Positions 15,520 through 39,429 of a stretch of DNA of 64,000 nt are shown here, in pieces (the stretch's first letter is position 1; every line of letters begins with the position of its first letter). Origin of the DNA: Haplodiscus bocki (lineage: Eukaryota). Position numbers and translations under genes: made by a program. The notes under the pieces are model-generated. The model made no database searches and had not been told where the DNA came from. It saw only the letters and a list, made by a program, of their open reading frames with translations. The stretch lies in contig CBFHFQ010000202.1 in NCBI GenBank assembly GCA_965655095.1, positions 1-64,000 of the forward strand, given 5' to 3'.

Positions 15520-15845
15520 CGCCATATTTATAATATGGAAGCAAAATCTTCCTGTCAAATGGTGCGTTTTTTTACCCGATGTCTGCCAATTGCGTTCACA
15601 GTAAAAATGATGTTCGTTCGCGTTTCTGACCATGAATTTTTTTACACCAACTTGTAGCAAAATTTCCGTAGAATGCGACTGGAATAGAATTTCTCAAAAA
15701 GGTCAAAATTTGAATTTTTTCTGGGAAAAAACCTTGAAATTTTTCAATATCGCTAAATGTGGCAAATTTTTTGTAGAATGCGTCTTAAAGGGTATTATTT
15801 CAGAAAAAAGGTTTTCCGCTTTGAATGTGAAGTTTTTTTGTCCTG
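15520..15845 (+). repeat. Dispersed repeat family, copy 4 (partial)
   Basis: catattt...ggaa...aaaatc...cgtttctgacc...gaatttctcaaaaag matches the reverse complement of 14560-14895. Confidence 0.7.
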
Positions 15846-16184
15846 CGGCTACAAAAAATAAATATTAAGCCCCGGTGTTGCAGAGAAAAGTATAATAATT
15901 GAAAAACCTTCCAGAAAAATTTTTCAAGACTATTTGACATTTGACAATTTCAGGCAACAAAAAGAACAAAAAAGTCTACCTTTCGATTAGAAAAGCATCC
16001 CACAAGAACAAAAAAACCCAGAGATAAACAAAACTACAGTTAAACAAGGACCTTGTGACACGGAAGAATTGAAACTTAACACTTCATTAGGGAAACATTC
16101 AGATTAGAAATCTAGGGTTTTTGGCACCACGCAAACTAGGAAGTGAAATCTGTACTTGTTAAACTTTCCTTTAGCTTCGCTTGG

Positions 16185-16560
16185 TATCACCTACTTAAAC
16201 ATTCTTTTAGTTGAGGACAGATGAATTTGACATTACAACATCGAATTTCCATGACATTTTAACTTTTAACATCTCAAACATTCAATGATGAAATTCTTGA
16301 CATATTAAGTTTTAACTTTCCAAAAGTTTAAATGATGAACTTCAAACAAATTGAAGAATTTGTTCATCACGTTTATTTAATGTTAAAAAAACTGAAACTT
16401 TAATAGCAAGCTCAGAAGAGTTACGAAATAAAACTTGCATGGTTTGTTTTTTTCACAAACCAGGAAACCACGTTTGTGCCCAAGCCCTGAAGACAAACTT
16501 ATCTGCTCGCCAAAAGAGATCTTCTCAAAATGAAAAAGTCAAAATTTTAAATAACGATTT
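16185..16560 (+). repeat. 5' LTR of Gypsy A (boundaries approximate)
   Basis: Colinear with 30128-30500 (tagttgaggacagatgaa, gatgatgaacttc, aaaaaactgaaactt, ctcagaaga, gaaaccac). Followed by a PBS-like ttggtga at ~16564. Confidence 0.75.
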
Positions 16561-17702
16561 GACTTGGTGATAGTTCGGAAGCAATCCTGACATGCAGTAC
16601 AGAGAAAAACTATCCTCATTCGGCTAAAAATCTTGCCTGTGCTCCCTATCAATCACCCACTGCGATGCCTTCACGTCATCAATCAAACCCAGCCACATCA
16701 TCCATGTCCAGGTCCAGTTCCATGCCGAACTCGAGTTCCAGATACACGGAGCTGCAAAACTCAAACAAAGAACTAACGGCAGTGTCAATGAACCTTTACA
16801 GGTATTGCAAAATCTTCTGACGTGAGTGCTGTGCGTTTTGGTGAAAATTTTCAAAAAAAAACACAAGAAATCAACTCAAAATTCGGACTGCAATCACTTT
16901 TTTGGAGCCAATTTTTGAATTGATTATGGAAAAACAACATTGAATTGCAGAAAACCGCAAATCAGCATCGTTGTTCAGCATTCTGTTCAATGACGTTCAA
17001 TTGATGTTCGGTTTTGGACAAGAGGACGACACGACAATGGAATATCAAATCTCCTTCAGATGCTTGACGTGATGCTTCAATTAAATGGCAAAAAACCAGT
17101 GGTGTTGGTATTCCAAGAGCCAGGTTTGATATGGTCATAAATTTTATGGGGAATCAAACGCTTCATTTCGCTCAGTTGCTTTCATTCGGCCCAAAACGCT
17201 TTTTTCTTTCAATACTTCGCTTTCAAGATTGTTTTTTTTTTGAATCATTTAAACTTTCAATCGTCTTTCAAGCAGTTTTCTTTTTCGGGAAAAGTTCGGA
17301 ATTTTCATTTTCCTTTCAAGAAAAACCGAATTGCAACCAACTCTGAAATTTCGAAGTAATTTTAACAGTTCGATTGGGTAGCACTGTAACTGTTATTTTC
17401 ATTTTTTTTCATCTGTTGGTCTTTCCACGCTTTTCACACAGAAAACTCATTGAAAAACCCTATCTCAAAAGTCTTTGCAGGAGTTTGTGAGGAATTTTTT
17501 TCGAAAAGTGACAATTCTGTTTCACCAAGTAAGCTTTTGTTTTCCAACGATTTTCTTCTTTCCAAGCAGTTTTCAGTTTTCGCCTTTATTCTCGTTTTTT
17601 CCAACCCAAATTAACCTATTTTTTCTAACTTTTCATTTAACTTAAAATAATATAACTTAACCTAAGTTAACTAAACTTTATTGTAATTTTAAATCATTAG
17701 AA

Positions 17703-19000
17703 ATGGTTCAACTTCAACTTACGCTCACTCCTTGTTCTGGCTTGAAGAAAGAGAAATTCAGTGAAATTGAACTCCTACTTCCAAGTATTTTGGCGGTACC
17801 AGCCAATCAGCATGCAAATTTTCTACAATGGCATCTTTAAGATGCTGCCTCACGCTTTTTTTAAACTTTAACTTAAGTTGCACAAGATGACTTAGACATT
17901 TCTGTCATGGCTCTTCTTGTTGGCCACAGTTACAAAAACTCCATATTCCTAGACCTAAAAATCTCAAAACTGACTCGAAAACTGAAATTTCGGAAACTCT
18001 TTTCAGGAACTTTCCAAAAAAATCATGAAAGCCTATCCGGATCCATTTCCTCCGGCAGTTGAACCACTTGATGCACATGCAGTGGATGCGACTGCTGAGC
18101 AAACTCGGCTGGATCAAAACACAGCGCGTCGCTCAGAAATTTTACGCTCTTCCCAAGAAGCACGATCAGTAAAAATTAGGCGTCAACTTTTCAGAAATAT
18201 GCCTGCTTGGCTGCGGGCAAAGTTGCTCGAGTAACTTGAAAGTACTACCGCGGAAGACTTAAGCATTTTTGCGCGAAAATAATTGTCAATTCATCATCTT
18301 CCCCAAACTGACGATTCTGTCATGGACGCATTAAGCAAAATGGGGCCTTTGGTTACAAATACACTTGTTAACGGTCTGCCAAAATTGAGCACGAGCCAAG
18401 AAGCAATGCACAATAGAGTAAATGAAAATCAAAAAAAGTCGAAAAACGAAACACTGCCTTAACGTATCAATTTATCTAATTTCACAAAAATCAAACCCAA
18501 CAGCCCCAGAGGGGAGCCGTTTTGCAAAACCGCGGCTAAAACTCAAAACGTTCAAGAGGTAAAAACCAAAGGAAATTTAGCAATGGAGAGTTTACAAGAA
18601 CTCGAAAGTATTATCAACAACGTTAGTGGCAGAATCAGCACCAAATGCATACACACTACCACAACAGTCTTATCAAATTTTTCCACAGCCAATTTCAAAT
18701 TCTTTTTTTTTTCACCGGCAATCTTCGAGTTTTCAATCCCGGAATGAAAATTTTTACTATCTAAATTTTGAGAAACAAAACTCACGGCCTCAAATTTCCA
18801 TATTTTAACCGAGACAATCGTTTGAAGTCTCTACTGCAGATCCTAATTACATGCCTTAGACACAACAAACTCAGATTACCTGTCATAAATGTGGTCTGTC
18901 TGATCAGTAAGCGACAAAGTGTACAGTGAGAAGAAACCCTCCACGTCGTGGCGCAAAAAATATATTTCCTCAAATTTTGAAAAACTAAGTACTCAGCACG
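17703..19000 (+). pseudogene. gag: gag-like ORF of Gypsy A (decayed)
   Basis: ATG at 17703, MVQLQLTLTPCSG...ANFLQWHL*DAASRFF, RRQLFRNMPAWLRAKLLE, and a zinc-knuckle remnant CHKCG near 18880. Confidence 0.75.
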
Positions 19001-19099
19001 AAGATCAACAGCCCAAACAAGTAAGGAACGTGGCTGAAAAAGCCAGACTCATGTAATGAATTTCCCTACGTAGATCCGCCTGAAAAGTGAGCTGTTCTT

Positions 19100-22000
19100 T
19101 CTTTAGAGAGAGAAAACTTTTCTTGTGTTCGCCTAAAATTTTCCAATCAAAGTAAATGAGAAGCTTTCATTGATGCAGGCTCCTGTCCTATTGCTTCATT
19201 TGAATCTTTTTAGTTGTGCTTAACTTGACTAGTTCTAACTTCTTGATTGTATAGAAACCTTCCTATATTTCTGCCGGAGTGACGTCTGGTCAAAAAGTTC
19301 CTTTTATCAAACAAGCAGAAGTTTCATTTCAGGTCGGATTTCACTATATTCGAGATAGTTTTCTTGTTTTACCGACTATGGATAGTGTTCTTCTTGGAAA
19401 TCTTTTTTTTTCAATAAACAAAAAAATTACAACTGATCCATGCAATAAATTGTTACAATTAACAAACTCGCTTTTACAGTTGAATCAATTTTTGCCCTAA
19501 AAGAGTAAAGAACCTTTTACAAAACAAAAATTGAATCTTTGTTTCACTTTAACGAAAAAAGAACAGATTACGCCCCAGTCGCAAGAACGTTCAGAATGTA
19601 GCTTGTCTAAACTTTCTGAGCAGTATCATTTTTGTACCGGACTGATTCTTGCAAGCAAACCTCAAGAACATACTTTTAGTTTTGCTTTTACTTCGTCTCT
19701 TAGCAAAAGTGATGATGAGTGTATTCTTCATTTTGGCTATAGATCGTTCTGATAATCAAATTACGTTAAATATTCAAACTGAAACAGCGCATTTCCGAAT
19801 TTTAAATGGAACAAATGCTGATATTTTGATTGAAATTGACCCTCAGCCAATTTTTTTATCAAAAATTCGTAACCCGGCTGATTTTGGAGACGAAATGTAT
19901 CAGTTGATTTAAGTTCTTCTTTCTCCAAAAAATGCTACACCAACAAGTCGCACACCTCTGATTACTCGAAACTCTGGTTTCTAACTCCAGAGACCCATAA
20001 TGAACTTTCTTGTTCAACATTCTCCAAAGAGAAATTTTTGATCAAATTTTGCAAATTCAGAAGCAAGAAAATGGATTTTCAAATTACTTACGCCGAGAAA
20101 ATGGATTTTTGGCAAAGACTTTCATGGGACACTTGTTTCCTAAATACTGACAAAAAAATCAACTTGAAGAATTTTTGGTTGAATACCAAGATGTGTTTGC
20201 CAAACAAGGCTTTGATGTAGGTTGGGATACGGAACTCAAAATTAAACTAACTCCTGGACACTCACTTCCAGTGTATGCTCAATGTCCACCAGCTCCAAGT
20301 CATCTGCAAGATGAAAAATTGGTTGAACTTGCATTGTTAAAAAATTTTACCATTGTAAAAACGCTGTCACGTTCCAAATTCAGTGGTGCGATGCTTGCAC
20401 ATCGTTAAGCAGCTGATAAACTGAGAATTCTATCTGTATACATCGTGTAAACGATCTCCTACGCCATGAACAATTAAGTAAAAACTTTACAGATTCAACT
20501 ATGAAAGATGCCACAAATAACTTTGCTTGGAAAAAAAAGTTTTGCAAACTTGTTTGTTCACGAACATATCACTGTGTTCAAATGGTAGATGACCTTTCGG
20601 TCCAAACTCTGGCTTTTAACTTTGCATTTCGAACTTTTGTCCACAAATTCTCAGCTCACGTTTTGATTAAATCTGTCAATGGTTTTACTTCCTTTGTCAA
20701 GCACTACCTTGACACTTACCTAGCACCAAATTTTTGTACGCATTTCGAGGACGATACTGCTGCTTGAGTAAATATTTTCAAGGAAATGATTCTAGCATTA
20801 CGAAGAAATTTTCATTGATTGAGAAAATTGGGTTTGAAACATTCAGCGCCAAATGCAAAGTCTTAACAACACAAATTGACTACTCAGGTAGCACAATTAC
20901 TGGAAAAGGAACAACACCCACATATGCAAAAGCTGAAAAACTCTTTGGACATTTTAGAATGCTTAACAAAGTGAATGAAGTGAAACGCCTAAATGGATAT
21001 GTGCTATTTTTTCGGAATTTTATTCCTAATCTTGGACAAAAATTATTGCAATTTCAAAATTTTTCCCGCAAAGAAAACGCTTCCAGAATAAAAATTGAAC
21101 ACCATTAGTCTTTCAACACTATAAGACTTAGTACGCGCTACTGATTGAACGTAACGCTAAACTAAACCAGGCTTCCAGTATGTCATTCTCTTTGACGCAG
21201 TTTTCATGGCACTGGTTTTGTAATAATGACTTAAAATTACTTGATTGAAGAAAAAGAAAACAAAAAAAAGCTGCACTCCAGTGCGTTTTGGTTCAAGACA
21301 TTTTACAACAACACTATTGAAGTTTCCTGTCTATCATAAGGAACCTCCAGCTCTGTAATTTGACTTAGACCTTTTTGCACACTTCAGTTGGGGCCCAACG
21401 AAACCTTTTCTAGTTTTAATGATAATCGAAACTTAACACAGCTTTTTTCATTCAGAAAGCAACCATCCATCTGTACAATCTTTACGGAATTGCTTAGACA
21501 GAGTTTTGCTTTTAATATTCTACTTGCGCATATTCCTGTAAAAGAAACCTCTGCTGCTGATTTTCTTCCACGCATGCACACAGAACCTAATTTGACCTTA
21601 GAGATAGAATTTAAGGATCATGTTGCTAATCGTGAAACTAAAACAGACACTGAAGAAAAAGCAGCAGATCTTACTTTGTCAAAAATAAGTGACATACGCC
21701 CTTTATTGAAGCAGTCCAACCTTGCAGTGACGAACAATTCATCAGTCAACTGAAGGCACGTGGTCTCTATGATCAATTTTTGCAAGAAATCCTAGTGATG
21801 ACCCAGACATCGCAATTGCGGGCTTTTTCTCCTCTTCATCGGTTTGTGATGTGAATTTGATTAAAACCAACAATTTTGAAGACATTTTGAACAAATTACC
21901 GAATCGTACACAAGCTCTTGACATGGTTCAAGATCAACAAAGTGATGAAGTTATCCGAGAGGTAATTCGATGGAAAAATTGGGGTAACACTGCTAAGTCG

Positions 22001-23990
22001 CCAATTTTACCGACACCATTACGTAAGTACAGAAAAATTTTTACCGCCTAGTTGTCGAAAATTTTTTTTTATTTTATATTTTTTATTTTATGTTGACTGT
22101 GGTAAGGTAGAATAAAACAAATTTGTGCATCAAAAACGCATTGGCATGAGTCTGTTTTGCACCTTCATTTTTCAAAATCTGCCGGACACTTTGGCATTGT
22201 GAAAACGGTTGAGGAATTTGGCAAGAGGTTCCATTTTCAAATCTTTACCGATTGTTTCTTTTCTACAATCAAAAACTGTCCTTTTTGCTTACAACTTAAA
22301 CGCGTACCGTCAAATTTTTTGGAACGACCACCGTTGTCACTGACTTCTTATCCGGATGAAATACTCCCAGTTGATCTGGGTGGGGCCCTAAAAACAACAG
22401 TTCACCAATATATGTTAACAACTATTGGTGTTTTTACGAAATACTTATTCGCTGTCCCTTTGGAAACGTCAGAGGAGAGACTATCCCGCGTAACCGGACG
22501 TCAATCATTTTTCCACATGGTAATTCACCAACAACAATTCTGTTTGACCTGGGAACTTCCCTTGTTTCTGAACTATTGCATGAATTAACAAAAGTGTTTG
22601 AAATTCAACTAAAAAGTGCAGGTCTAAAACACCCTTAAACAGTTGTCTTTGTGCAGCGCTCCCATAGTGCGCTTAAACGTATTCTAGAATTGAATTCTAA
22701 TGAACAATAGAGCGATTGCTTTAAATACATACAATTAGCAACCTAACATCACAACCAGTCTTATCATTCAGCCCTTGACTGTAGTCCTACAATATTTTTT
22801 CAGGGACGTGAACCAATCTAACCATTAGAGCTACAAATCAATGAAACTTTGATACAACGATGATCTCCGAGTTGCGAATATGTTTTTGCATTACAAGACG
22901 CCGTCATCAGGATTTTCTCGTAAACCAAACTTAAAATCATTCAAATGTACAAAAACGATCGCGCCTAATATGATTGTAAAGCGGCAGTCAAACCGTTAGC
23001 TCTGTTCTTCTACTGTCTCTTACTTAATCCAAAGCTCTCGACACAACCTGATTTCGAAAATAAAACGTTGCCGATTTGGCTGGCTCTCTATCATATCAAG
23101 AGATTCTTGACGAAATCCAGTTACATTTTTTCCAAAGTTAGCACGAAATACACACATATTGTCCACAGAATTCGTTTTCGTCCCGTGACCCCGCAAGGTC
23201 GCATTGATGATGTAACGGTCAATCGTTTGACAAATCTTTGAAGAGGCCCATCGTTGTTTATCGGATGTACACCTTCTTTGTTGTAACCTTCCACCACAGA
23301 GGTTACAACTCGTACAGCGACGGAAGACCCGCCAGCTGTACCTGCCAGTTTTCGATTTCTAGTCGCTCCAGTGCACGTACCAGTGAGACAGGCCGCTGCA
23401 CCGTCTCTGTTGCCCCCAAGGCTGAAGCACAATTACCAGAGTGACCTCAACTTACTACTCAGGTTGTATGTCTCACTAACGATGACGGTGTACAAACTGA
23501 GGAACTGCGAAAATTTATTCCAAGTGACAATAGTGACAGTTCCGCTGACACCGCACGTAAAAGTTCAGTTGACTTACCAAATTTTCTCACCACTTTTCTT
23601 TCTGGAAGTCCACAGACCCCATCTTTTAGTTCTAAGTTAACTGAATCGTATGATTTCAGACCAAGATCACCACCTGAGGACTATCATGAGAAAGCCATTC
23701 AAATCAAAAAACCGCCTAATGTGCGCTGTATTCCGGTAAGTGAGCCAGATGTCTCGTCGAATCATTTGGCTCAGAGTCAAAAACGAGAGTTAGTCATTGA
23801 TTTGTGTCCACAAACGCCAACCTTTCGAAGTAGTTCTGATATCCATACAAACCGACATGTACACAATGCTCGCATCACTATTGTACATTCGGAGCAGTCA
23901 ACGCCACCAAGATATTCAGTACGGCAAAGGAGGTGCAAAAACGCTAATTTCTGAAAAATTCACAGAAAAGTCTATCGAAACAAAATGACA
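19100..23990 (+). pseudogene. pol: pol of Gypsy A: protease, RT, RNase H, integrase and a low-complexity tail (decayed)
   Basis: Protease AFIDAGS at ~19165. RT YHCVQM...LAFNF and FEDD at 20744-20755. RNase H at ~21180-21570. Integrase H...GHFG...CPFC and PVDLGG at 22160-22390. The PR-RT-RH-IN order is the Gypsy order. Confidence 0.92.
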
Positions 23991-24001
23991 TCAATGCAGT
24001 C

Positions 24002-24445
24002 ATTGACTCCAGTAAACATCCAAATTTTTGCTTTGCACAACCAATTAGTCTGACAACTGCTACATGCATAGCGCATTGCGTTTCTTGTGATTTTGCTATG
24101 GGCAAAAAATAGCTGCTACGCTCAATTGTTGTTATACCGAACTGCAGGAATTGCGATAAAAATCTTCATATTTTTATCCACCTGGCTCTCTAGTAGCTAA
24201 TCTTGATCAACCAAACATTCGATATCTTTTTAATTTAGTGACGAAAAAACCACTTTCTCAATTGAACAACCTACGGAACACTCGAATTGAGCCTGCAAGC
24301 GTTAAAAACAACACTTGAAACTCCATAAAGCTTTTGCCGTTCCTTAATTTCCTTGTAACTATGGTTAGTTACGGTTCTCGAAGTTTTTTCAATTTTACTC
24401 AAAAATTTACCAGATTCAAACATCACACTAATGATATTTTATCCT
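24002..24445 (+). pseudogene. Macrodomain of the TARG1/OARD1/Poa1p-DarG type, inside Gypsy A after integrase (decayed)
   Basis: Manual translation across frameshifts gives CIAHCVSCDFAMGK/IAATL...PGSLVA...RYLFNLVTKK.../TYGTLELSLQALK.../FAVP*FPCNYG*L.../DSNITLMIF. This is colinear with TARG1 SLAHCISEDCRMGAGIA...RYIYYLITKK...PTYENLQKSLEAMK...LSMPRIGCGLDRL...DIKITVY. Confidence 0.85.
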
Positions 24446-24599
24446 ACATGATAACATAGCATGCCATTATTGAGTAAAAAACTTTCTATTCTCCGAAACT
24501 TGTGTTTTTCTCAAAGTTCGGGCTTATTTGGTCCAAACATATCGAAAGTTCTTATTTGACCTATGAATGCCTTTTTTTGACGTCACAAAGTCAAATTTC

Positions 24600-26200
24600 C
24601 AGAAGCGGGCAGCAACAAAAGCTGCTTTCTCCCGCCTAGCATCCTATTCCACAATCTCATTCTCGTCTATAACCTCTTCAATATAAGCGTGTTTTTGAAA
24701 AAAAATCATTTCTCCCATTTCTAGTGTTTGACATTTCCATTAAATTTTTCAAGGTCAAAAAGTCAATAATCAAAATTCTGCCAGCAACAAAAGTTTTCCC
24801 ATCCTCCTCGCTTCCTAATAACCGTGTTCATTTTCCTTGGCTAGACTCCCATTTGGAACGCAATTTTGCCAAGAAGAAAATGATAGTTTTTTTTCCACCC
24901 TGCACTACTCGGTATTAATTGAATATCCATCGGAAAACTTATCCATATTTTTGCTATCTTCAAGAATGAGATATATTTAATAGTACAGTTAGAAGGAACG
25001 TTGTTCATTTCCCGATTTCATTCACTTCGCAGCAACTGGAAAACGAAAATCGATGAAAAAAGTCGGAAACAAGAACAAAAAACATACTTTTTCACTTTCA
25101 TCCACTTCTCTCGCATTGCTCGCACATTCAAGTTTTCGTTTTCGTTTCGAAACTCAAGATGGAAGACCTTGTTTTCTTTTTTCCTTAAGTCCCACCCACG
25201 CATCTTTTAGATAAACTCGGCTCAATAAATCGCCCACATCGGTCGGCTCCATCTGTCTTCCTTCAAAGTTTGTAACAGTTCTCCTCGTTTTTTTTCAGGA
25301 ACAGTTTTTAGACCTCTTAATGTACCCGTCCCCACCCCAAAACCAGAATCATTTGACACTTCTCGAATTTTTTCTCTCTCTTCACTATTTGATTTGGCCC
25401 TGCCTGTCAGCACAGTCGTTCCTTTGTTTGAGGTCAACACAGACTGCGCGCAAAGGGCATGCTGCACCAGAAAGCTATTAGGATCGGCGAAATAATAAAA
25501 TGTATTTCCGTCAAATTTTACAGGAGGCATAGGACATAGCAAGCTCTTAAACTCTTTCGCAAATCAGATCTGCTAAATTAAACATTTCGAAGCAGCCCCA
25601 CGTTCCGCGATAAGGAAAAAAATTTCCCCCATATGCAACATGGTTTACCGATTCATAACCGGCAATTTCAATATGTCCTCTGTGAACCATCCACCCCAGG
25701 TTATAAAGGCATTCCGCTCTCAACCCACCACATAAGTTGAAGTTTTCATGGTGAATAAATTTGCCATCCCATTGACTAACCCTTAGAAGTTCCTAAAGTT
25801 GCATCAACACACGTCAACAAATTATTGGCCACGGTTTCCCGCTCTCTCTTAACCCAGTCTCGAACCGCTCAAATTCACTTGCAGGGTAACTGCTTTCTGA
25901 TATCGTGCTTAATTTTATTTCTTTTTTGGTTGAATATTAGGTTAGGCGAACCTTTTTTACAATTAAAACTTTTCCCAGTATCGAAATGAGTGGACTCAAT
26001 ATCCTATCAGGACGATAAAATTGCTCCAATCTATTTGCTGAACTGTTTTCCAGTCCACTTGTTCATATTCCACAGCATTGCAAAACTTTTCTCTAAAGAG
26101 ACAATGTTCCGGCAAAGCTGTCTGCGCTTTCTTCGTAGGAGCTCCATCGGTCATCATTTTAAAATCGACTTAAATCTGAAATTCACATGATATACCAAGA
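24600..26200 (-). pseudogene. Decayed antisense accessory ORF of unknown function inside Gypsy A
   Basis: Successive protein-like minus-strand segments: SYPASEFERFETGLRESGKPWPII...VSQWDGKFIHHENFQLMWWVESG, ORF 25222-25542 and ORF 25018-25203. Confidence 0.5.
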
Positions 26201-27407
26201 CCGCCATCTGTTCCATTTAACTTCGAACGCTTGTTTTCGCTTGTTATTTTATGTTGCTTAATGTCAACATCTACTTTAACGTTGAATGTTTTGTATACTG
26301 GTGTGCGCTGTGAAACATTCCTCTTCAATCGTTTCGAATTTTCTTTGGACTCATGTATTTGTTTCTTACCTTTACTGGTGTCATAAGTTACATTATTATA
26401 ACCTCACCCTTCCTAGCTACTTTAGTCTGCTTCTGACTAACTCCTAGCTTTTTCAATCCTTCCTAGCTTTAATAGGAATACTTTTCACCCAATTTCCTAG
26501 TTTTTTTTCTCGCCTGTTTTACCCAGTTCTTTTGATCAGATTTGTTTCTTTTGCACCACTTAATTAAAACTAAAAAAACAAACCGCAAAAGCAAACTCCA
26601 ACAAGCTACTTTAACCTAAAAAAAACACAGAGGAACTACGCTACAAGTAACGTGGAGTGAACAAAACAAATTTTATTTCGTTTCCACTAGTTTCAATTTT
26701 TCTGCTAGCTTGTCCCCTTTTACCACAGGCGTCGTACAACTTGGTAAACTACATAAGCCACCATATAGTAAACAAGTTAAGCCAGGCGGAAGTTTGTCTC
26801 AAAATTGATAAAGACTACCATTGCGTTTGAAGTCGTTTTCATGTAGATACTTTGTTGCTTGATGCCACAAAATAAAGGCCTTTCTTTAATCAACACTTAT
26901 TCCCAATTTGCACCTTAGATGGTGGGCCCAATGTTGCAACAGAGTATTCTCTGACCAAGCCAAATTTTCTTTGACATCATAAATTGCAGATCACCGCTAG
27001 GGTGGGAAGTACCATGAGATTAGTCCACTTTTTCATTTTACAAGCTCGTAGACTCGAAGTTTTTCATTGATCTCCTGCAAAAAACTGTGACCGCTCCAAC
27101 CGAAAACAATTCCTTCCAATGCCATATTCAATGGGCCAACGTTTGCTCGTTTCTTTTGAACGTGCAGGTCGCAATTATCTTAACCAAAAATGAACTTTCC
27201 CGCGATGTGACCATCCGGCTAAAATCTCACGGTTTGTTTGTTCAAATATAAACATCCGCCAACTATGACAACAGCGCAAGAACAAAAATCTGACATTTCG
27301 AAAAATTTGACTGTTCAGAAAAACTCACGCTGACATTTATCATGATACTCTTTTTTTCGATCCGCCTGTTTAATTGCTGATTCAACCAAAGTTAAAATCT
27401 CAGAAAC

Positions 27408-29716
27408 ATGCTTCTGCTTTTCTTCTCCTTAAAATTCATTTCTGCTCCTGTTCGAAGTGGTATCAGCTTCTAACATTGCAGCCACCGCAAATTCCGACTA
27501 AGTTACGAAAAAAAGAGTTTGTTTAACCAGGTTCGTAAAATCTTACCGAGTGGAAAATTTTTTCGCGTCGAAGTTCTTGTTCCGTTTCCGACTTACGCCT
27601 TCACTATGAACCCCGATAATGAACACATTATTCGCCAACTTTCCTTAATGTGGGAAACTCCTTCCTTTTTGAGTCCGTTAAATTTTTCAAGCCAATTTGC
27701 GACAAACACTACTGGCTTCAATGTCAATTGGATGTTACATCAAATTAGTCATGAGATTTTGTTAGCGCAACACAACCCCGCGCTATCCGGAACGAAACAG
27801 CTATATTTTCAACAACAGATAAGCCTCCAAAGTCTACTCGACAACGTCGCGACGCCAGTATGGGATTTGCGTTTGTTGCCGTTCTTGGATTTTTCGGTGG
27901 AGACCCTGCTGTAGGTGGTTCCAATTTTCTTGGTTTACGTAGTGTTTTTGGGATTTCTCAAAATCAATCCGAGCAAACGCAGAAAGTGTACGCCACCTTG
28001 CTGTTTTCCAAAACCGTCTCAGTGAATACGTTACGAAGTTCATGGCCAACACGGATGAAAAAATCTTTCTTGCTGAAATTGAATTGGCAGCTCTCAATAC
28101 AATTCAATCTGAAACTGGCGCGACCCAAGAGAAGAGCTGGGCCATGAACCAAGATAAGTTGGCATTTTATGAACAAAACTTTTGATTTCTACATGGTTGT
28201 GATCAACTTTTGTTTGCAAATCAGCCGCCTTATTTTAGTTTTGATACTGCCTTTTCTCTAATTTCAATGTTTCGTGCTAGCGTGAGAACCTATCGTTTAG
28301 CTTTGTTCACATGACCATTTTTGTTAAAACGAAAATTTCCAAGGCCGCTCGTTCCTAAGAAGTTGCTTCTAATGATAATGGATAGTGTCAGTCTCCGACA
28401 GTCAGAAGCCGAAGATGGCTTAACCTCTGATATACAAGTGAGCGGTTTGTTGTCTTTTTATGATTCTTGCTTGCTCGTTGACGCTACTATGGTATCAGAA
28501 CGACTTTTGTTGACTCTTAACATACCACTTGCTTCACCGCAAACTGTTAATACGCTTTTCGAAGCGAAACTTATTCCGATGTTTTTTCCGGGCAACCCTC
28601 AGACTGCTCTTAAATGGAACATCAAAGCTCCATATTAAGCACTCTCTGAGAATAAACATGAGTCGTGGTCTTATTTCTGGAACAATAGGAGGACTGTCGC
28701 GGTTTGTCGAAGTACCGAATTTACTATGGAACATTCCCAGCATAAATGGGACACCCTTCTTTCATTGCAATTTTGATCTTCTTTTAGTCCTTTTATTGCA
28801 TTAGTTGTTTGTGAAACTACTGCTATCACCTTACCCAGCCTTGAACAAGCTTTGAACCTCGGTTTTGGTATAAGGCCTGTTAAATCTGCCAGAGCTGATA
28901 TCACTTTCCGGCAATCAGAGTCTTTAGCAACATCAACCTCAACAAGATCATTTGCTGGTTGTCGTATTTGCATCACCAACATCGCGTGTGGCATGCAAGT
29001 TCGCACGGGGCAATTCTTCTTAAGATTGGCTCTTGCATCATGTTCAACTATTCCGGCAATTAAAGATTGTTTTTGCTGGATTCGCTGGATTCTATGATCA
29101 TGCAAGCACCCGTTAGACGACATACCATTGTAAACCTCGGAAACAGAAGCAGGAGTAACTATTTTAGAAGCAGTACAAAAGAAGCTGGTAAGCAGCCCCC
29201 AAGTCCACGAAGTCAATCAAACGGTGGAAATAGCAAAACCGTTTGCACAGGACATGAGACTTTTGAAACCCGCACTCACCCTCAAAACTAATCAGTATTT
29301 ACCTTTCAAAGTGCCTTTTACGATGACCTTCATTGTTTTCATCATCGCAACAGTGCTGAATCTTGTTTTCCACTACATGTATCACCGGTTTAATCAAAAA
29401 GATTACATCTTTCTGAAAACATTCACGAAAAAGAACACTACAAAACCGGAGCTGCAAATTCCAAAAGAATTCTCAGGAGAATTTTGAACCAAGCTTTCAA
29501 GTTTTTATCTCTTGCTTGCTCCTGCTGCGATTGAAATATCATAGAAACCTCCGAATCTCCTTGATAGAAACAATAACTCCAACAGTAACCTCGGAGCAGC
29601 CACTTCCATTCACATGCTGCCTTATTACGCACCTATGGAAGCGAACGCGAAAATCTGTGACTGCTATCGCGCCTCAACTGGAAAATTTCTATGCGTCATT
29701 CCCCAAAAATTTTTGA
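27408..29716 (+). pseudogene. env: env-like class I fusion glycoprotein (F-type) of Gypsy A (decayed)
   Basis: Signal-peptide-like start MLLLFFSLKFISA at 27408. Furin site RQRR at 27839-27850. Hydrophobic Gly-rich fusion peptide DASMGFAFVAVLGFFGG. Heptad-repeat region, Cys-rich ectodomain (GCRICITNIACG...ASCS), TM segment FTMTFIVFIIATVLNLVFHYMY at ~29317-29385, then a cytoplasmic tail. Confidence 0.85.
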
Positions 29717-30127
29717 AAATCAAACTTCCACTGCTTGATTGACTCGAAATCTCATTTCAATCAATAAATGTGATTATCAAAACCAAAACATGCCTTTTTC
29801 AAAAAGTTTCTGCAATAATATGTGGAATAAAAATCTAAAAAATTCTGTTTGAATACACCACACGACAGGACGTAACGCAAGCTTGTGACTGGCACAAAAA
29901 TTACGTCAAAAGATGATCACATGACAAAAGTTTGGGCCATTGGCAATCTTGGAACGGCTATCACTTGAAAATACCTTTCTACTTAACGGATATTTTTTTT
30001 GGGTTCATTTTTTGTTTTTACTAACTCAACTTGTGTCTTTCAGTCGTTTCAGTTCATGAATTTCACTGGATTCCTCCACTGGATGATGTGCTCTTTTGAC
30101 AGGCCAGAAGTGTTTGAACGGAGTATT

Positions 30128-30500
30128 TGTCTTATAGTGAAACATTACTATAGTTGAGGACAGATGAACGTGAACTTACAACATCGATTTTCTTTGAGGT
30201 TTCAACTACTAACTTCTGAAACATTCCTTGATGAAGTTCTTGACACTTAGTCCAAAAACGTTTTGAACCTCAGATGATGAACTTCGAATAACTTGGATAA
30301 TTTGTTCATCATGTGTGTACAATGTCGAAAAAACTGAAACTTTTAGTAGCAAACTCAGAAGATTTACAAATTGAAACCTGCAACGTTCGTTTTTAACTAA
30401 CCAAGAAACCACCGTTGTCCGCAAGCACCGAACCGAAACTTCTCCGAACGCCATAAGAAATCTGCTCAAATTCAATCAATCAAGACCTGGAACAACGACA
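30128..30500 (+). repeat. 3' LTR of Gypsy A (373 bp)
   Basis: Starts TGTCTT and ends ACGACA (imperfect inverted termini). Preceded by a purine-rich PPT remnant gaacggagta. Homologous to 16185-16560. Confidence 0.8.
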
Positions 30501-33500
30501 TGAAACCTTTGGTAATTACGTATTCACGCCTGGCAGGGCAACCATGTTCAATCCCAACCTCAACGGTCCTAGATTTTACCCATACTTTCGAGAAAACTTT
30601 TCTCGGAAGACTCGGTAAACCTTTGCCTTTGTTGAAGAAAATTTTGAAAGGCCGTGGCATTTTGATTCGTCAGTCATTGAGAAGTTTGATTGTTCCGGTA
30701 GGCACACTGCGCCAGCGGCGTTCAGGTGGAAAACAAAGGACTTTACTACCTCCTCTTGTTGTAGCAACGGCGTTAAGACAGTTTTTTGGCAAATCCGGAT
30801 TAGTGGCGTCTACATAAAATCGACTGCCAAAGGAGCGGTAAATCCGGTGAAAGGATTCAATTCGGATTGGCATGATTCACAAAACGCGCTCGATACCAGC
30901 TGCCGACACTCTACGACACTTCTCCTACGTAATGAAAGCTGTCAAACGGAGCTGTTTTTATTCCTCGGGAAAGAAGCTGCTATCATGGAACCTAATTGAT
31001 GTGATAAACCTATTGAATAGTTCTGTATGATTTTTGAAATATGTCCACCAGAGCACAAGGAAACTCTCCAACAATGAGAGCTAGAAAAAGGGGTCAATTC
31101 ATATCTTTCAATGCACTGCGACTGGTCAGGACGGCAAAGATTGTGTTGCGTGGACATCTATATCGTTGCCGTTGCCCGTACCGAGAGATTTCATGGATCG
31201 CTTTTTATATGTGGTTTTTGAACTGCATCAGGGTTTGAAGACTATAAAATATCGCTATCGTCAAACAACGCCAACATTACAAGTATATATTTAGTGCAAA
31301 TTCATCTAAACAGTATGGTCGACGTGACAAAATATGCTTTTTTGGGGTTGACGGGACTAATGATGAGGCTGTATCTGAAGGTGTGGTAGAGATTGCCAAC
31401 AACATCGGAGTGACTATATCCAAACATGATGTAAGTGTGTGTCATCGCTTGCCTCTAGGAACGCTGAATCACACCCGAAAATTGCAAGTGTTGTCCGAAG
31501 TGAAATCAAAGTTTGCGTTATGACTCGCAAAAGATTTCTAAAAAACTCATCAACAAAATTCTTATCAATGACGATGTAACACTATTGCGGGCAAAAAAAG
31601 CAAAATCTTTTCGCCAGCACCTTGTAGTGAAATAGGTCAAAATGTTTAACGAAAAAGTAGTTTTAAAAAATCTAATGATAAAAAGCATATTTTCAAGAAT
31701 TTATTTGATTGAACTAAATAGGACATGGAATTTTTTGATTCTGTAGGTAAGGAGTTCTGGTATTTTTGGTAAGGGACCTCTCAATAAAACGACCCCACCC
31801 ATATATTGAACTAAAGTTCAACAAAGTATTAGGAAAGACATTTAGACCAGTCGAGAAAGCAATGAATGCATTTTCAAGTCAAAATTCGCTCGCCTGGTAA
31901 AGATTATGAGAACTCAGAAGCTTTTGGCAATAAATAAGCCATCTGTTGAATGTTCATCAGAAGCATGGTTATCGAAGGTGGATGAAATTCAAAAGTCCAC
32001 TTAAACAAATACTTGCTTCCGGTGTTTCATACTGGCTTCAATAGAAATGGCCATGCAGTCATTGATGTTCACGAGTTCACCAAATTTGAGGTGTTATGCA
32101 CCGAAGCAAGCTTACTGCAATATCGGAACGAGTAAAAACAACCAAAGTTTTGTTGTGGTTTGCTTGTACATCTCTCAATCCTTCAATTATTCTTCAATTG
32201 TGGAAGAGTTTGAATTGTTACTGAACGACATTTCTAACTTAATGGGTTCCACAGGTTTTATTGTAGGCGATATGAATTTTGATCTGCTGAAAAAAGGCTA
32301 TCTGTCTAGTATTTATTCAAGTTTTGTGCAGTTTAACGCAATGACTCAACTGATAGAGACTGCAAACGACTCACCATAGATTCGGCAACTCTGATTGATC
32401 AAATATTTCATAATCATTTCATTATTAATCCTAACTGTGGTATACTTGATGGTGGTTTATCTGACCACTGTGTTAATCTCCAGAAATTGCCGTTTTCTGG
32501 TAAAAAAAATTTTTGCTTCCATTTATGATGAAAATGCAAGACAAGTTTTTTTAGTTTTACTTTCAAATCAATTGAAAATGTCAATCCCAATGATGACCTC
32601 TGCCTAGAAATTCGAAATGTTTTTGGAATCAATACAACACAGTATTGAACTATGCAGCTCTGGAAAACAATCCAAAAACTGCAAACAAACTTGGTTTAAT
32701 TAGAATGTTCAAAATGCTATCAGTAAGAAAATACAGGCAATGAAGCATTTCAGAGAAAAACCAACTGCTTCGAATAAAACAGTACTCCTAACAGTTAGTC
32801 GAAAAACATGTTTGTTTGTTAAAGAAGTCAAATGTAATCAATTTTGAAACATATTTGCAAATTTTGCAAAAAAACATAAAAAAAAACATTATAAAAAGCC
32901 CAATAAAGTGACAATTAAACGAAGAGTGAAAATAATCTGACTCTAAATAGAGAAGAAAAGAAGTAGAAACAGAGGAAATCAATTTCTCCAACAGTTATTT
33001 GTTAAAAAAATGTTACTTTTGCAAAACTTGTTAAATGTTCAACCACAGAGGAGCTGAAAGAATGTATTAAACGTTTTGATAATATTGACGACGTTATGTT
33101 TGCCTTCCCAATTAGTGTGATTGGTTCATGTTTGGTAGGTAACTTGAAAAAAATAAAGCCGTTGGACTTCTTGGTGTCTCATCTGAAATGCCTGAAATTT
33201 CGCAATCGGTGAGTATTTTTGTTTTAATTGAATTTCCTATTCTATCTTTGTCATGCAGTTGGTTCCCGAACTCTCTATAGGTTGCCAAAGTATAACCCTG
33301 ACATACACCGGGTGACCAAAAGGGATATCAAAAACTATACCTCACTTTGGATTCTAACAGCTAGTAGTAAAGTGTTCGAGAAAACTTTGTATGTACGATT
33401 ATACTTATTTTTCGATAAAAAAAAAGAGTTTTTTTTCCGGGAGCAGTTTGGTTTTTTATAGCAAACGAAGTACTATCGACGCTGCTGCTGAAGTTACAGA

Positions 33501-34195
33501 GCAATTTAAGCAAGGAAGCATTGCTACTATTTCGTACGCATTGCTCGATTTGCGTAAAGCAATTGATTCCACTAATCAAAAAATTACATTAGCTAAACTT
33601 GAAAAACAATTTTTCAGAGGAATTTCTTTACAGTGTTTTGAATCAATTTCAAAGGAACTACGTCAGTGTGTTCATGTAGATGATTTATCTTCGGATTTCC
33701 TGTACCTGCTGGTACGAGTACCGCAAAGCTATAGTCTCACAGCCTATATGGGCTTTAATATACAATAATGATCTCCCAGGTGCTTCTGAATTTCTTCACT
33801 CAATTTTATTCGCTGACGACACGAATCTGATTTATTGTAAACGTAAAGATGATTTGTTTTTGCTAATTAACCTTTTAGAAAGTATTCCGAAACACCTTTC
33901 TGTCGAAAAACTCGCTGTAATTATCGATAAAATTGGAGCCATAACTTTTAGCAATCAGGGTGATCAGATTCAAATATCAGACTTCAGCATTGAGGGAAAT
34001 ATTTGTGTGAGAAGTTTTGGCATTTTCTTCGATTATCATTTAATTTTTTTTCATATTGCTGAGGTAGTGGAAAAACTGTCAAAACATTCTTCAGTAAAAT
34101 CACGAGTTAGACACTATGTTGAAAAGCGTAGCCTTCTCCAGTGGTATAATACTTAACCGGGTTTCGCATAGGGTCATTTATGTTTTCGCTGAATA

Positions 34196-34268: not shown

Positions 34269-37074
34269 CTAGATTGTTGTCCACAAGTCTCTGCACTGGT
34301 GACAGTCACAGGCTGCCTGCCAAGTACAGACATTTTGGAATGAGAACTTTTCTTCAAATATCGCTTTCATTGTTCTCAGAATCCTACTTTTGAGTCCAGC
34401 CTTTTCGTCAAAGATGATATACAAGTTAAGTCTGTTCGCTAATCGGCTATTTCTGAAGAAGAATTCCGATCTCGCTTTCTCCGTTCGGGCTCCACCTGTT
34501 TCGAAGAGTGTGCGTGTTCGCCTGTTTGGTGGAACTCTAGGGGGTATCATCTCATGTTGTTCATCACACAGGGAGGAGAACAGGAGTAAGTCATTAACTT
34601 GCAAAAACATGGGCAGTGGGAGGAGATTGAGAGTACTGAGTTGACGTTTGTAATCGTCAGACTGATTGCCCATTATCCATTTGATGGCTTTCCGCTGGAA
34701 ACGTTCAAGCCTGTTTAGGTCCGTCCTGTTAGGGCTGTAGCAGTGAAATCCGTAGGTCAGTATCGGGAGAATTAACGATTTATACAGACCAAGTTTGACC
34801 TGGCGGCTGATCTGATAAGCGACATTTCGCCTGACGTAATAAAGGGCGTTTCTGGCTTTCGCCAGTCTGACATCGACATGTCTAGTTGAGCTCAGTTTTT
34901 GGTCTATCATTACACCCAGATCCTTGACTTCGCTTGAAGATTCAAGCACTGATCCCATCAATTTGAAGTTCTTGTTTATGCCTCGAAAAGTGAGTTTGGC
35001 ACATTTGTCCATTGCTAGGCTCATTTTGTTCTCGTTTACCCAACTTTCGATTGCTCTCAAGTCTCTTTGGAGAGAAATAGAGTCAGGCTTTATTGCAAGT
35101 ATTTTGAGATCGTCGGCGAAGATATAGGGCTCACTGAATTTGAGGCGGTCAGGGAGGTCATTGATGAAAATGCAAAAGAGTAAAGGCCCGAGAAGGGACC
35201 CTTGAGGGACGCCACTGTTGACAGGTAAGGTTATGGACCTTTGGTTGTCAACTCTCACATACTGTTTTCGATCTTTCAGGTAGTCAACAAGTACCTCAAG
35301 GAAACATCCTCCAACTCCGGTGTTCGCTACTTTTTGCAGTAGTTCAAAGTGAGGGACTTTGTCGAATGCCTTCGAGAAGTCAGTATAGAAGGCTACTACA
35401 TCATCCTGACTGTTGTTGTCAAGGGCCTTATGTATTTTTGTTCAGGAAGAGTAACATGTTCGTCATGACGGATCTTCCTCTCGTGAATCCATGTTGACTA
35501 TGGGTCAGAAACTGCTCAAAGTGGTTGTAGAGGGGTTCATACATGCACTTCTCAAGCACCTTGCTATCTATATTCAGTAAGGAGATAGGTCGCCAGTTTT
35601 CGACTGACCTTCGGTCTCCTTTCTTGAATATGGGTGAGACGGCAGCAGTTTTCCATGTCGCGGGAAGCTTGCCGAGACGTTTGATATTGCGCAGGAGTTT
35701 GTGTAGGGCTGGAGTTATTTCAAGAGCGGTTTTGTTGAAGAAGATGGGTGGTAGGCCATTTGGTCCTCTTGTTTTTGTGACATCTAAGGACGAAAGAATT
35801 TTCCTGATTTTACTTTTGGAGACATTGAAATTTGTCAGAATGCTTTGTTCGGCCTTGATATCGGCGTGTGTGAACACTTGTTTGGAGGAGAAGACTGATT
35901 GGAAAAAGTTGTTCAGCAAGTTGATTTTGTCAACGGGCGCTGTCACGGTACTTTCCCATCGGTCATTTCGTTGGGGAGGGAAATCGATTTTTTGAGACTC
36001 TTCAAATGCTTGAATATTCCATCTGTGTTTCGCGAACCCATCAGTTCCTCTTGATAGTTTTTTCTATCTGTTTCACATGCGGAGAACACTATATTTTCCA
36101 GATTAGTTACTGCTGTTTTTCGATACGAGGTCGGTTTGCGGCTGAGCAAACGTTTTTGTGTACCAAGTTGCTTGATCAAATGCGAGGTACTGCGAGTAAT
36201 CCAGGGTGGTAGTTGCTGCCTGTGGAAGGTGCGTCTTGGAACGTGTCTTTCGATTATGGAATCAAAGTACTTGTATAGTTCTTCCGTCATTTTGTCAATA
36301 TTGGTGTGACAGATAGAGTCAAAAGGCGCGGAGCGCATTGCTTCGTTCATAGCATCATAGTCACCGCTTCCGAAGCTTCGACATCTTTCCAGGGTCGGTT
36401 TCTTTTCATAGAGTGCACATTCCAACTGTAGCAGGATGGCGTGGTGGTCTGAACAGTCGTATACATTCTCGAAGGAATCATCTCGCTTGGCGTGTATATG
36501 ACAATTTGAATAGAAGGCGACGTCCAGAATGTTTTGGCCACACGTTTTGAAATCAATGGCTTGTAGAAGGCAATGATCCTCGAATTCGTCGAGAACTTGT
36601 TGTTCGTAGTCAGAGAGACTGGTTAAGGAACTCCAGTTCGTTTCTGGGAAGTTTATATCTCCACAGATAACTAATTGGGAGGTTTTGGGAAGAAATTAAG
36701 TAGATTTATGAAGTCGGCTAGTTCATATCGGTATTTACTCGAAGCTGGGGGGTTGTAGAATACACATATAATTATGGTTACATCACAGATTGTGATCTTG
36801 CACGCAATACTGCTGTCGGGCATGTTCGGGTTGTGGACTTCCTCGGCGGCAAGTTGTTTTTGACAGCAATCAATGACCCTCCATGGGGGTTTTGATCATG
36901 AAGTGCTTTACGGTCTGCTCTGAAGATGTCATAGCCGTCAACTAAGAGCTCACTGGAGGCAATGTTGACGTTAAGCCAAGTTTCACAGAGACATATAATG
37001 TTATAGTTATTGGAGGTGATTGCATTTGCTAATTTGGCTCTTCGATCAAAGTTCACTAGGCTTCTGACGTTCAT
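34269..37074 (-). CDS. LINE D ORF2: APE endonuclease plus reverse transcriptase (several single-base frameshifts as assembled)
   Basis: MNVRSL, CLCETWL, YNPP, ICGDINFP and SDH (APE). WRPISLL, HSQHGF, YTDFSKAFDKV, SGVPQGSLLGP, FADD and KDLGV (RT). Terminal CTWQAACDCHQC. Confidence 0.95.
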
Positions 37075-37097
37075 TTGAAGGATGTTGACGAAGTTTT

Positions 37098-38008
37098 CTA
37101 GTCAATCAAGGTAGGAGGTCCACCTGAATCTGTCGAGGAGACTTCTACTTTCTCACCATCTAGAAAAAGCTCGAGATTTCTGACACTCAGTTTTTCTCTT
37201 TCTACTCCATTGTTGATCAACTCCCTTCTCTTCTTGAGAATTTGGTTCTCTCGGATAGCATCCTCACGTGAAAGGGCAGGGAGAAGATAGAGATTGGCTT
37301 TGGACAGTTCATCTCTTTTTCTACGGGCTGTGGCCAGAAGTAAGCTCACTTCATGTTCATTTGAGAGGGTGACAAGCAGTGGTCTAGGTTTAGTTCTCGC
37401 ATTGTCGAATTTTCCCATGCGTTTCATTTCAACAATTTGTGGCTTGGGCTGAAGGCCCAAGAGTGTCCATCATCTTGTTAACTTCATCACATGTCGGGAC
37501 AAGATTTTCAGCTTTGGATTTAGCAGGATCCTCTCGAATTCCTTGAATTCGAAAGCTTTGATGAATGTTGTGACGTGGACTGGGTTTCGTTTGACTTTCG
37601 TCGATTTTTGCTTTTTCGGTTTTTAAGTTTGTCGAGAGAACAGAACTGTAGGTTTTTTTCCACTTTCTCGCACGTGTTTTTCAGTGCTTCATCGATTTTT
37701 CTGTCAACAATTTCAGTAAGTCGCTGGTCCATGTTCAACAGTTTGTCATTTAGATCAAGGCTTTCAATCTTTTCAACCAGGTTGCTCTGGGTGAAACTTC
37801 GTACAAACTTATCGCGCACGTTGTTGTCATGACAGGACTGGCACAACAACATTGCGAGCCCACCAAGATCTTTTATGCCGTTGACTGCCACTGGGGTTAG
37901 TCCAGTGCAACTTGAACTGAGGTGGAAGCATGCATTGCAAGCTACACAGGTGTAGATTGGTTCATTTGCAGTGACATTCCGCTTACATGTTTTGCACGTT
38001 TTAGTCAT
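37098..38008 (-). CDS. LINE D ORF1: PHD finger, coiled coil and RRM/CTD (frameshifted as assembled)
   Basis: CKTC...CVAC...H...C...CQSC PHD finger, coiled coil, then FRIQGIRE...RMGK...PRPLLVTL after frameshift correction. Confidence 0.9.
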
Positions 38009-38076
38009 TTTGTCGAAGAGGCTGGACTATTGGACTCCGAATTAGAAATTCAAGGAATACACAATGAGTTCTAACC

Positions 38077-38679
38077 TTATTGACTATCAGCTGCGTTCTG
38101 TTTTGCTTTCCGTCGACTTTTGGATGGCCTGGGTGTTCTCGTTCTGGTTCGATACAACTTTTTGAGATCAGGGAAGTAGTGGAGTATGACGGATAGGGTT
38201 CTCAACTCTTGATCAGCAGATTGGTGAAGTTTTTGGTACTGTCTCCGAACGCTGAGATTTTCACTTTCAGTTCTGGAAAGAATGTGAGTCGGAACGTCAA
38301 TAATGAAAACGTTTCTTTCTTTTAGGGCCAAAAGTTCAGCGAAGATGTCGGGGGCACCGTCTCGTTTGCAATGAACTACTGCGAACAGATGTGGGATTTT
38401 CTTGAGAATTGACACGAGTTCTTGTGCTGGTAGGGTCTTGTTATCGTTCGAATGGTGAGCTGTCAGAGAATTGTTTATTAGGTCGTGCCACAGTATGACC
38501 TTCTTGTTAGTGACAGCGGGGGAGTTGATGAGCGTCAAAGCTTTCAGCTCGGGGTTCGTCACTCTCGGGTTTAGGCTGTACCTTGACTTGGCGAAGACAG
38601 AGCTACCGAGTGATTCCTTGATCTCAGGATCTGATTGAAGGGCCCTTTCTAGTGAGCTGGCACCGATAACTTGGAACAT
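38077..38679 (-). CDS. LINE D ORF0: intact 200-aa putative SGNH/GDSL-hydrolase-like protein with a basic tail
   Basis: Uninterrupted ATG-to-stop ORF inside the TSD-bounded element. N-terminal VIGASS resembles block I (GDS), VILWHDLINNS resembles block III and QKLHQ resembles block V (DxxH). Arg/Lys-rich C-terminus. Confidence 0.7.
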   Translation of the reverse strand: MFQVIGASSLERALQSDPEIKESLGSSVFAKSRYSLNPRVTNPELKALTLINSPAVTNKKVILWHDLINNSLTAHHSNDNKTLPAQELVSILKKIPHLFAVVHCKRDGAPDIFAELLALKERNVFIIDVPTHILSRTESENLSVRRQYQKLHQSADQELRTLSVILHYFPDLKKLYRTRTRTPRPSKSRRKAKQNAADSQ

Positions 38680-38714
38680 TCGGGGGAAATTGGGATTTGA
38701 GGGGATTTGGGGCT

Positions 38715-38796
38715 TGGACTCGGACTCTGAGAGTCAAGGAGTACACAAGGTTACCCAAGGATCTGGACTCGGATTCTGAGAATCAAGGAGTGCACA
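38715..38796 (-). repeat. Two tandem copies (49-nt period) of a 33-nt motif in the LINE D 5' UTR; a third copy lies at 38031-38063
   Basis: tggactcggactctgagagtcaaggagtacaca / tggactcggattctgagaatcaaggagtgcaca / tggactccgaattagaaattcaaggaatacaca align without gaps. Confidence 0.9.
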
Positions 38797-39229: not shown

Positions 39230-39429
39230 NNNNNNNNNNNNNNNNNNNNNNNNNNNNNNNNNNNNNNNNNNNNNNNNNNNNNNNNNNNNNNNNNNNNNNN
39301 NNNNNNNNNNNNNNNNNNNNNNNNNNNNNNNNNNNNNNNNNNNNNNNNNNNNNNNNNNNNNNNNNNNNNNNNNNNNNNNNNNNNNNNNNNNNNNNNNNNN
39401 NNNNNNNNNNNNNNNNNNNNNNNNNNNNN
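39230..39429. other. Assembly gap (200 N)
   Basis: Run of N. Confidence 1.

Follow-up and report, generated by a model that had tools for sequence, protein, structure and literature searches.

A probable dead class I F-type envelope gene in a Gypsy-type element of Haplodiscus bocki and its intact relatives

Introduction

The trimer of viral F proteins is primed by furin cleavage; the spring-like extension of heptad repeat A into a coiled coil then inserts the fusion peptide, and the subsequent fold-back merges the two membranes. Drosophila errantiviruses pass from the ovarian soma to the germline. A recent survey collected 1,512 intact env-carrying Ty3/gypsy elements from most metazoan phyla, many of them F-type, and its accessible text argues for an ancient acquisition of env (Chary and Hayashi, eLife 2026, PMC13524379). 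According to the same portions of that article, elements were filtered by a POL-ENV distance of 1,000 nt, with a 3,000-nt manual extension for most non-insect groups, and the accessible genome list names no Xenacoelomorpha (PMC13524379). Acoel genomes are described, in the available part of one report, as rich in LTR elements (PMC9911081); among the literature matches listed, none concerned env-bearing Gypsy elements of acoels or Xenacoelomorpha.

The presence of F-type env genes in Gypsy elements is relevant to the origin of viral class I fusogens and to the way in which retrotransposons gained infectivity. That such genes are widespread and ancient in animals is already published, and one further dead copy adds little. 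The value of the locus described here lies in its family, which is mostly invisible to Pfam, deeply branched and rich in intact members, and which offers an extra branch for F-protein trees.

The stretch analysed, hereafter the window, comprises 64,000 nucleotides of a Haplodiscus bocki contig (CBFHFQ010000202.1). It contains a decayed gag-pol-env element of 14.3 kb with env as the last open reading frame (ORF) before the 3' repeat (Table 1). As far as the accessible text of the survey describes them, the “ancient errantiviruses” of non-insect metazoans share its LTR-gag-pol-env-LTR organisation at a 12-15 kb scale, and their ENV shares the F-type ectodomain with furin site, fusion peptide, head and stalk and a TM anchor; in contrast, the window copy is dead, and its 3.45 kb pol-env interval with an antisense reading frame exceeds the 1,000 and 3,000 nt limits given there (PMC13524379). 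Env-F of the Drosophila errantiviruses gypsy, ZAM and Idefix, in the part of the literature available, likewise has a signal peptide, furin site, fusion peptide, conserved cysteines, TM segment and tail, and its env also frequently decays (PMC12992720). The nearest proteins in structure and in transitive sequence matches are baculovirus F (PF12259) and the chu-like virus glycoproteins, which differ in that their identity is at most 15% and the env described here sits in a retroelement. Paramyxovirus and pneumovirus F (PF00523) has the same predicted fold class and F2/F1 layout, whereas identity to it is 6-12%, the relatives of the window env are longer (about 750-830 aa) with several helices before the TM segment, and no attachment-protein partner was recognised.

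Results and discussion

Env pseudogene and its anatomy

We conclude, at a probability of roughly 0.87, that the plus strand from 27408 to about 29520 carries a dead env gene of the class I F-type in a Gypsy-type element. Within 27408-29716 the longest open pieces measure 80-146 codons, lie in three frames and include no long ORF; the region reads as one gene because alignment to relatives joins the pieces. An intact natural relative, P0003 (748 aa, uninterrupted), is 64% identical (436 of 683 aligned residues in a frameshift-aware alignment to its residues 1-700), and tblastn covered its residues 1-715 in three blocks (27408-27785, 27785-27973 and 27970-29517). The family profile matched the window at this place only (E 6e-109, 1e-19 and 6e-10). 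The first-pass annotation had placed the gene at 27408..29716. Its start holds, as the ATG at 27408 aligns with that of P0003, but homology is lost near 29520. Position 29716 closes a frame that has no alignment with P0003, which leaves the tail end uncertain at about 29600-29740.

The succession that was read from the letters by eye, namely a signal peptide, RQRR, a Gly-rich peptide, a heptad region, a Cys-rich domain and a TM segment with a tail, was recovered complete and in order, spread over three frames (Table 1). The signal peptide was called from hydropathy and likeness to relatives. In the 24 residues following RQRR, 42% are Gly or Ala and the best 19-mer has a KD of 1.46. As a chance control, the six frames of the window were scanned for R-x-K/R-R; of 76 such motifs only one precedes a peptide of this kind, namely the RQRR at 27839-27850, with thresholds chosen post hoc.

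Upstream of the ATG lies a pyrimidine-rich stretch ending in AG, and in the relative L001 the corresponding stretch is 68% pyrimidine with a TAG one base before the env ATG. Env of Drosophila errantiviruses is made from spliced RNA, according to the available text (PMC12992720), and by analogy the AG-ending tract is a plausible env splice acceptor.

Table 1. Positions of the retroelement features within the 64,000-nucleotide window
Feature	Position	Strand	Basis and remarks
5' LTR-like direct repeat	16191..16561	+	74% identical over 372 nt to 30134-30502; no clear TG...CA
Primer-binding-site-like stretch (putative function)	16565..16576	+	TGG-led, just past 5' repeat; absent past 3' repeat
Decayed gag-like region	17704..19000	+	Suggested by position and a degenerate zinc-knuckle pattern near 18881-18922
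Decayed pol	19100..23954	+	Protease-like motif, RT, RNase H, integrase, low-complexity tail, in that order
Decayed antisense reading frame, about 390 codons	25222..26400	-	7 breaks to read through versus 12.9 in shuffles (2/300)
Pyrimidine-rich stretch, possible splice acceptor	27348..27407	+	62% pyrimidine; CAG ends four bases ahead of env ATG
F-type env pseudogene	27408..29520; tail may reach about 29600-29740	+	P0003 alignment, tblastn, family profile
Signal-peptide-like leader	27408..27455	+	Best 8-mer KD 2.74; aligns to P0003 residues 1-16
Env frameshifts	near 27462, 27499, 27783, 27971, 28666, 28782, 29062, 29109	+	P0003 alignment
Furin-type site RQRR, F2/F1 junction	27839..27850	+	Motif; common in relatives
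Fusion-peptide-like segment	27851..27916	+	Hydrophobic peak, same place in relatives
Heptad repeat A	27965..28213	+	Equals P0003 residues 188-271; mapped via frameshift-aware alignment
Env stops	28183, 28312, 28636, 28686, 28743, 29131; in tail also 29485	+	P0003 alignment
Beta-rich, Cys-rich head domains	28500..29060	+	P0003 model strands 366-564; invariant Cys columns among long relatives
Transmembrane segment, then cytoplasmic tail	29305..29385	+	Best 19-mer KD 2.25 at 29311-29367; P0003 645-671
3' LTR-like direct repeat	30134..30502	+	Pairs with 16191-16561

A family with intact members

Uninterrupted relatives of the env exist, P0003 being an example that stands for 102 member sequences. 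Searching with one frame read through its stops gave 17 proteins of 48-64% identity among 1,085 candidates. The profile of these 17 close relatives reached 1,007 representatives at E<=0.001 (the best 150 of the 1,007 were listed), and a wider profile 347 representatives, with 28 proteins of >=700 aa among the 120 matches listed. Near full-length relatives (>=700 aa) made up 40 of the 266 fetched and hence number at least 40. Among these 40, an R-x-K/R-R motif is found in the N-terminal third of 32, and seven of the other eight have R-x-x-R ahead of a hydrophobic peptide. By hydropathy, 36/40 possess a C-terminal TM stretch and 24/40 a hydrophobic leader, the other starts being variable. Pairwise identity of 23 long rows (alignment A2) ranges from 20 to 91% with a median of 29%, and 11 Cys columns show no variation in 20-23 long relatives. 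Several intact clusters have 102, 82, 66, 36 and 32 members; clusters of this size fit recent copying, and the counts may include repeated assemblies. No loci of the relatives were found in viral contigs, prokaryote genomes or phages, nor in metagenomes searched with A1, and a search with A3 gave two short contigs.

Pfam sees little of this family. Baculo_F (PF12259) matched neither the window frames nor P0003, and at E<=0.01 it recognised 4 of 60 family members and missed 56. Its curated cut-off was passed by one of 20 long relatives, P0055 (28.1 versus 24.1 bits), which aligns with P0003 over 623 columns at 29% identity (E 7e-87). Fusion_gly (PF00523) and the Gypsy env family (PF07253) matched none of the 60 members at E<=0.01, nor the window frames or P0003. 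Sequence-profile searches of PDB gave no match with alignment A1 and, with alignment A2, metapneumovirus F as the best match at E 0.011. Several other matches were set aside: haemagglutinin HA2 rows from the A2 search (E>=0.047) were taken as coiled-coil noise, a DUF4199 match of the window env frames is driven by the TM segment and lies below cut-off, and three weak PHROGs matches (E>=0.014) were disregarded. The env may represent a new, mostly Pfam-blank branch with at least 40 near full-length relatives; it is possibly unsurveyed as well, because the survey's accessible genome list lacks Xenacoelomorpha and its filter was set at 1,000 nt between POL and ENV (PMC13524379).

Predicted fold and trimer

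The fold was predicted for the natural relative P0003 with a 60-row alignment, rather than for the window copy, and reached a pLDDT of 79.7 and a pTM of 0.66. In the model, two strands and helices (F2) form the N-terminal part and are followed by a disordered cleavage and fusion-peptide zone (145-184), helices at 185-256 and 260-316, a beta-rich head (366-564), three membrane-proximal helices and a TM helix. Foldseek against PDB listed 35 rows, all 35 of them paramyxovirus or pneumovirus F proteins (RSV, henipavirus, parainfluenza, mumps and Newcastle disease virus), with a best E of 1.8e-5; whole-chain TM-scores were low (TMq <=0.28). Similarly, all 50 of the 50 VIA rows were paramyxo- or pneumovirus F, the best with Z 8.1 and an rmsd of 5.3-6.1 over 317-319 residues; this Z is middling and near the level of common helical arrangements, but the list is uniform. 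The first Atlas matches (0.95) were Baculo_F clusters (23% and 12% of members) and a Fusion_gly cluster (82%), at a recognition of 1646, which is under the range where the score counts as strong evidence. The model thus matches F proteins, and the first-pass assignment to class I fusion proteins stands.

In BFVD, Foldseek placed the glycoprotein of Hubei myriapoda virus 8 on top (E 3.5e-21, 15% identity), followed by the uncharacterised 801 aa abalone herpesvirus protein A0A145VUZ2 (E 1.4e-19, 14% identity), with baculovirus F at E 3.8e-16. Overall the chu-like virus and baculovirus glycoproteins match the P0003 fold at E 3.5e-21 to 4e-16, and the best BFVD matches have 12-15% identity and TMq <=0.40. 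Ranid herpesvirus proteins also occur among the fold matches. Judged from the model, the fold of the family sits closer to the chu-like virus, baculovirus and abalone herpesvirus proteins than to paramyxovirus F. Moreover, the fold matches suggest that aquatic herpesviruses may encode F-like class I proteins; among the literature matches listed, none dealt with an F-like protein of malacoherpesviruses.

A trimer predicted from three copies of P0003 residues 30-360 scored 0.62, compared to 0.00 for the best of three controls. Such a mark was reached by 21/30 solved homo-pairs and 0/23 single chains (animals 7/16). The predicted contacts between chains involve residues 188-271 with the 3-4 spacing of heptads, that is, a three-chain coiled coil; contact agreement between runs was at least 33% and pLDDT was 42-47. 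The trimer model is to be read as likeness only, because similar complexes have already been solved.

Origin of the env

The first-pass annotation regarded the env as captured independently by a Gypsy lineage. The F-type env of a Ty3/gypsy-type element is borne out by the fold, the trimer, the transitive Baculo_F matches and the context, but the independence of the capture is not, since no close donor was found, the family is deep and a published alternative exists. Capture from a free virus of chu-like, baculovirus-like or mollusc herpesvirus-like kind, apart from the other errantivirus F genes, would agree with the nearest structural matches being free-virus proteins (Hubei myriapoda virus 8, abalone herpesvirus and baculovirus F) and with the position of the family largely outside Pfam's Baculo_F. 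Furthermore, bdelloid TelKA elements are described, in the accessible part of one report, as having acquired a paramyxovirus-type env (PMC5408684). However, BFVD contains viral proteins, hence only viruses could come back from that search. Identity to them is at most 15% and the family itself spans 20-91%, so any capture must be old. In addition, the available text of the survey reports broadly congruent env-F and pol trees, with viral F families nested within the diversity of element F genes (PMC13524379). We therefore consider a separate capture by this lineage unlikely. The first-pass annotation was right to leave the donor virus family unnamed. Viral proteins in the structure libraries reach at most 15% identity.

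Carrier element and pol-env interval

The two repeats of about 370 nt that bound the element are spaced by 13.94 kb and have diverged to a K2P of 0.299 over 366 sites. The gag-like region gave no Pfam match in its three frames. In pol, Pfam recognised RT_RNaseH (E 0.0014) and Integrase_H2C2 (E 2.3e-5 to 4.4e-4), both under curated cut-offs, and the protease was assigned by motif alone. These matches are weak owing to decay, and the pol of the 16191-30502 element has decayed too far for a direct RT match: searches against PDB gave none or, in one case, E 0.26. By tblastx, 20513-20863 resembles the RT of a second element in the window (E 3.8e-17), which is recognised by RVT_1 (1.2e-9) and also matches foamy-virus and Ty3 RT. 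A probable affinity to Ty3/gypsy is indicated by the domain order, by the RT_RNaseH and Integrase_H2C2 models and, indirectly, by the likeness to the second element. In the operational sense of an env-carrying Ty3/gypsy element it is probably an errantivirus: LTR-like repeats and a TGG stretch flank gag-pol-env, and the pol order is PR-RT-RH-IN.

Between pol and env, the minus strand of 25222-26400 can be read through with fewer breaks than shuffled sequence (Table 1). The boundaries of this frame were picked after viewing ORFs, and ten such read-through tests were run. Known genes on their own strand scored 1/300 (env) and 0/300 (pol), and read-through was at chance for the plus strand of 25222-26400 and for both strands of 24000-25200 and 26400-27400. 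The frame is purine-rich on its coding strand. With moderate confidence, 25222-26400 is a decayed gene; the element may have owned it as an accessory gene, or it may have arrived by insertion at a later time. No relatives were found in Pfam, among 13 candidates or in Atlas (best 0.78). One of the loci considered, L003, gave a 25-residue match that was judged to be chance. In L001, 818 bases ahead of env bear no likeness to the window interval, a stretch too short to test the layout. Antisense ORFs after pol are described in plant Retand elements, in the accessible part of the report (PMC11963269). These Gypsy elements likewise have a long post-pol region with an antisense reading frame, but they belong to a plant lineage and carry a TRP28 domain and no F-type env.

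The env might instead be a separate insertion (an endogenous viral element or part of another element) within an env-less Gypsy copy, so that the interval would mark the join. The wide gap holding an antisense frame without relatives would suit this reading, and no intact element joining a pol and an env of the window type was retrieved. On the other hand, env lies on the gag-pol strand as the last gene before the 3' repeat and has decayed like pol, and neither the interval nor env is bordered by a repeat of >=40 nt. Moreover, the locus L002 (1-1460) ties the same pol type to the same env type: RNase H and integrase fragments like those of the window's pol run almost directly into a mid-env relative, and this locus is an internally deleted copy. 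A separate insertion is thus very unlikely.

Somewhat less probable still is that the carrier is a BEL/Pao rather than a Ty3/gypsy element. BEL/Pao elements have the same RT-RNase H-integrase order, and one of them, Drosophila roo, carries an F-like env. However, the Pfam matches obtained, RT_RNaseH and Integrase_H2C2, are models typical of Ty3/gypsy, neither Peptidase_A17 nor DUF1759 was found in nine gag-pol frames, and the RT of the second element, to which this pol is related, resembles those of Ty3 and foamy viruses.

Decay of the env copy

Gag, pol and env are all broken in the element at 16191-30502. In the frameshift-aware alignment to P0003, the env copy contains 8 frameshifts and 6 stops. 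It keeps 51 of 80 columns that are invariant in the family (64%, defined from 27 long relatives), the same proportion as its overall identity (64%), and 6/10 of the invariant cysteines. Invariant columns have therefore been lost at the background rate, a pattern of decay without selection. Read-derived contigs from runs X1 and X2 are identical to the letter over 23192-28829, which spans 11 of the 14 breaks, and a second sample (run X3) covers 27069-28204 with two substitutions and no gap; all four runs behind this comparison belong to a single study, and the assembled sample may be among them. The breaks are genuine, and the env copy at 27408 yields no working protein. No sign of domestication was seen at the locus, with its frameshifts, stops and loss of invariant residues. 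That it is a domesticated host fusogen, syncytin-like or Iris-like, can practically be dismissed: some of the at least 40 near full-length relatives, known from protein sequence alone, could be co-opted, but this copy has 8 frameshifts and 6 stops, its breaks recur in read-derived contigs and its invariant residues are lost at the background rate.

Proposed function of intact members

By analogy with known F proteins, from which cleavage, triggering, fusion and infectivity are drawn, the intact members very probably encode a type I membrane glycoprotein of the F class. Such an env, expressed from a spliced RNA, would enter the ER via its short signal peptide and then trimerise. A furin-type protease would cut after R-x-R-R to give F2 and F1, and this cut would release the fusion peptide with its many Gly and Ala residues. 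After triggering, heptad repeat A would form the trimeric coiled coil and drive the fusion peptide into the target membrane, the membrane-proximal helices would fold back and the target membrane would fuse with the envelope of the particle. Gag-Pol particles might thereby pass between cells, as Drosophila errantiviruses do in ovaries.

A broader reading is that the window copy represents a large, recently active lineage of “complex” F-env Gypsy retroviruses in an unsurveyed animal group. Its pol and env would be separated by an antisense accessory gene from a new family, an arrangement that would escape the distance filter of the published survey. We offer this as a tentative possibility. If true, the host group would be among the richest reservoirs of F-type retroelement fusogens, with dozens of intact env types, some of 30-100 members. 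Conservation of the antisense frame as an accessory gene would make the lineage a “complex” retroelement of invertebrates.

Other elements in the window

The second decayed Gypsy-type pol, whose RT is mentioned above, lies on the minus strand at about 44400-49000 (RVT_1 1.2e-9) with about 3 kb between its RNase H and integrase matches; no env of the F-type family was detected beside it. A fairly well kept LINE occupies the minus strand at 34269-38733, where endonuclease and RT lie in three frameshifted blocks (RVT_1 2.3e-21, Exo_endo_phos_2 1.7e-6), and upstream of it are a Cys-rich zinc-finger ORF and a 218-aa ORF without Pfam match. ORF fragments resembling decayed LINE pieces are found on the plus strand at 31248-34156 and 12638-13060, with no Pfam match at E<=0.01. 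Two 200-N assembly gaps (1077-1276 and 39230-39429) are located outside the element. Finally, an inverted repeat pair (14548-14783 and 15621-15838, 68% alike) is present beside the 5' LTR, very many read-derived contigs align to 15500-16016, and the inverted-repeat region is probably a high-copy MITE-like element.
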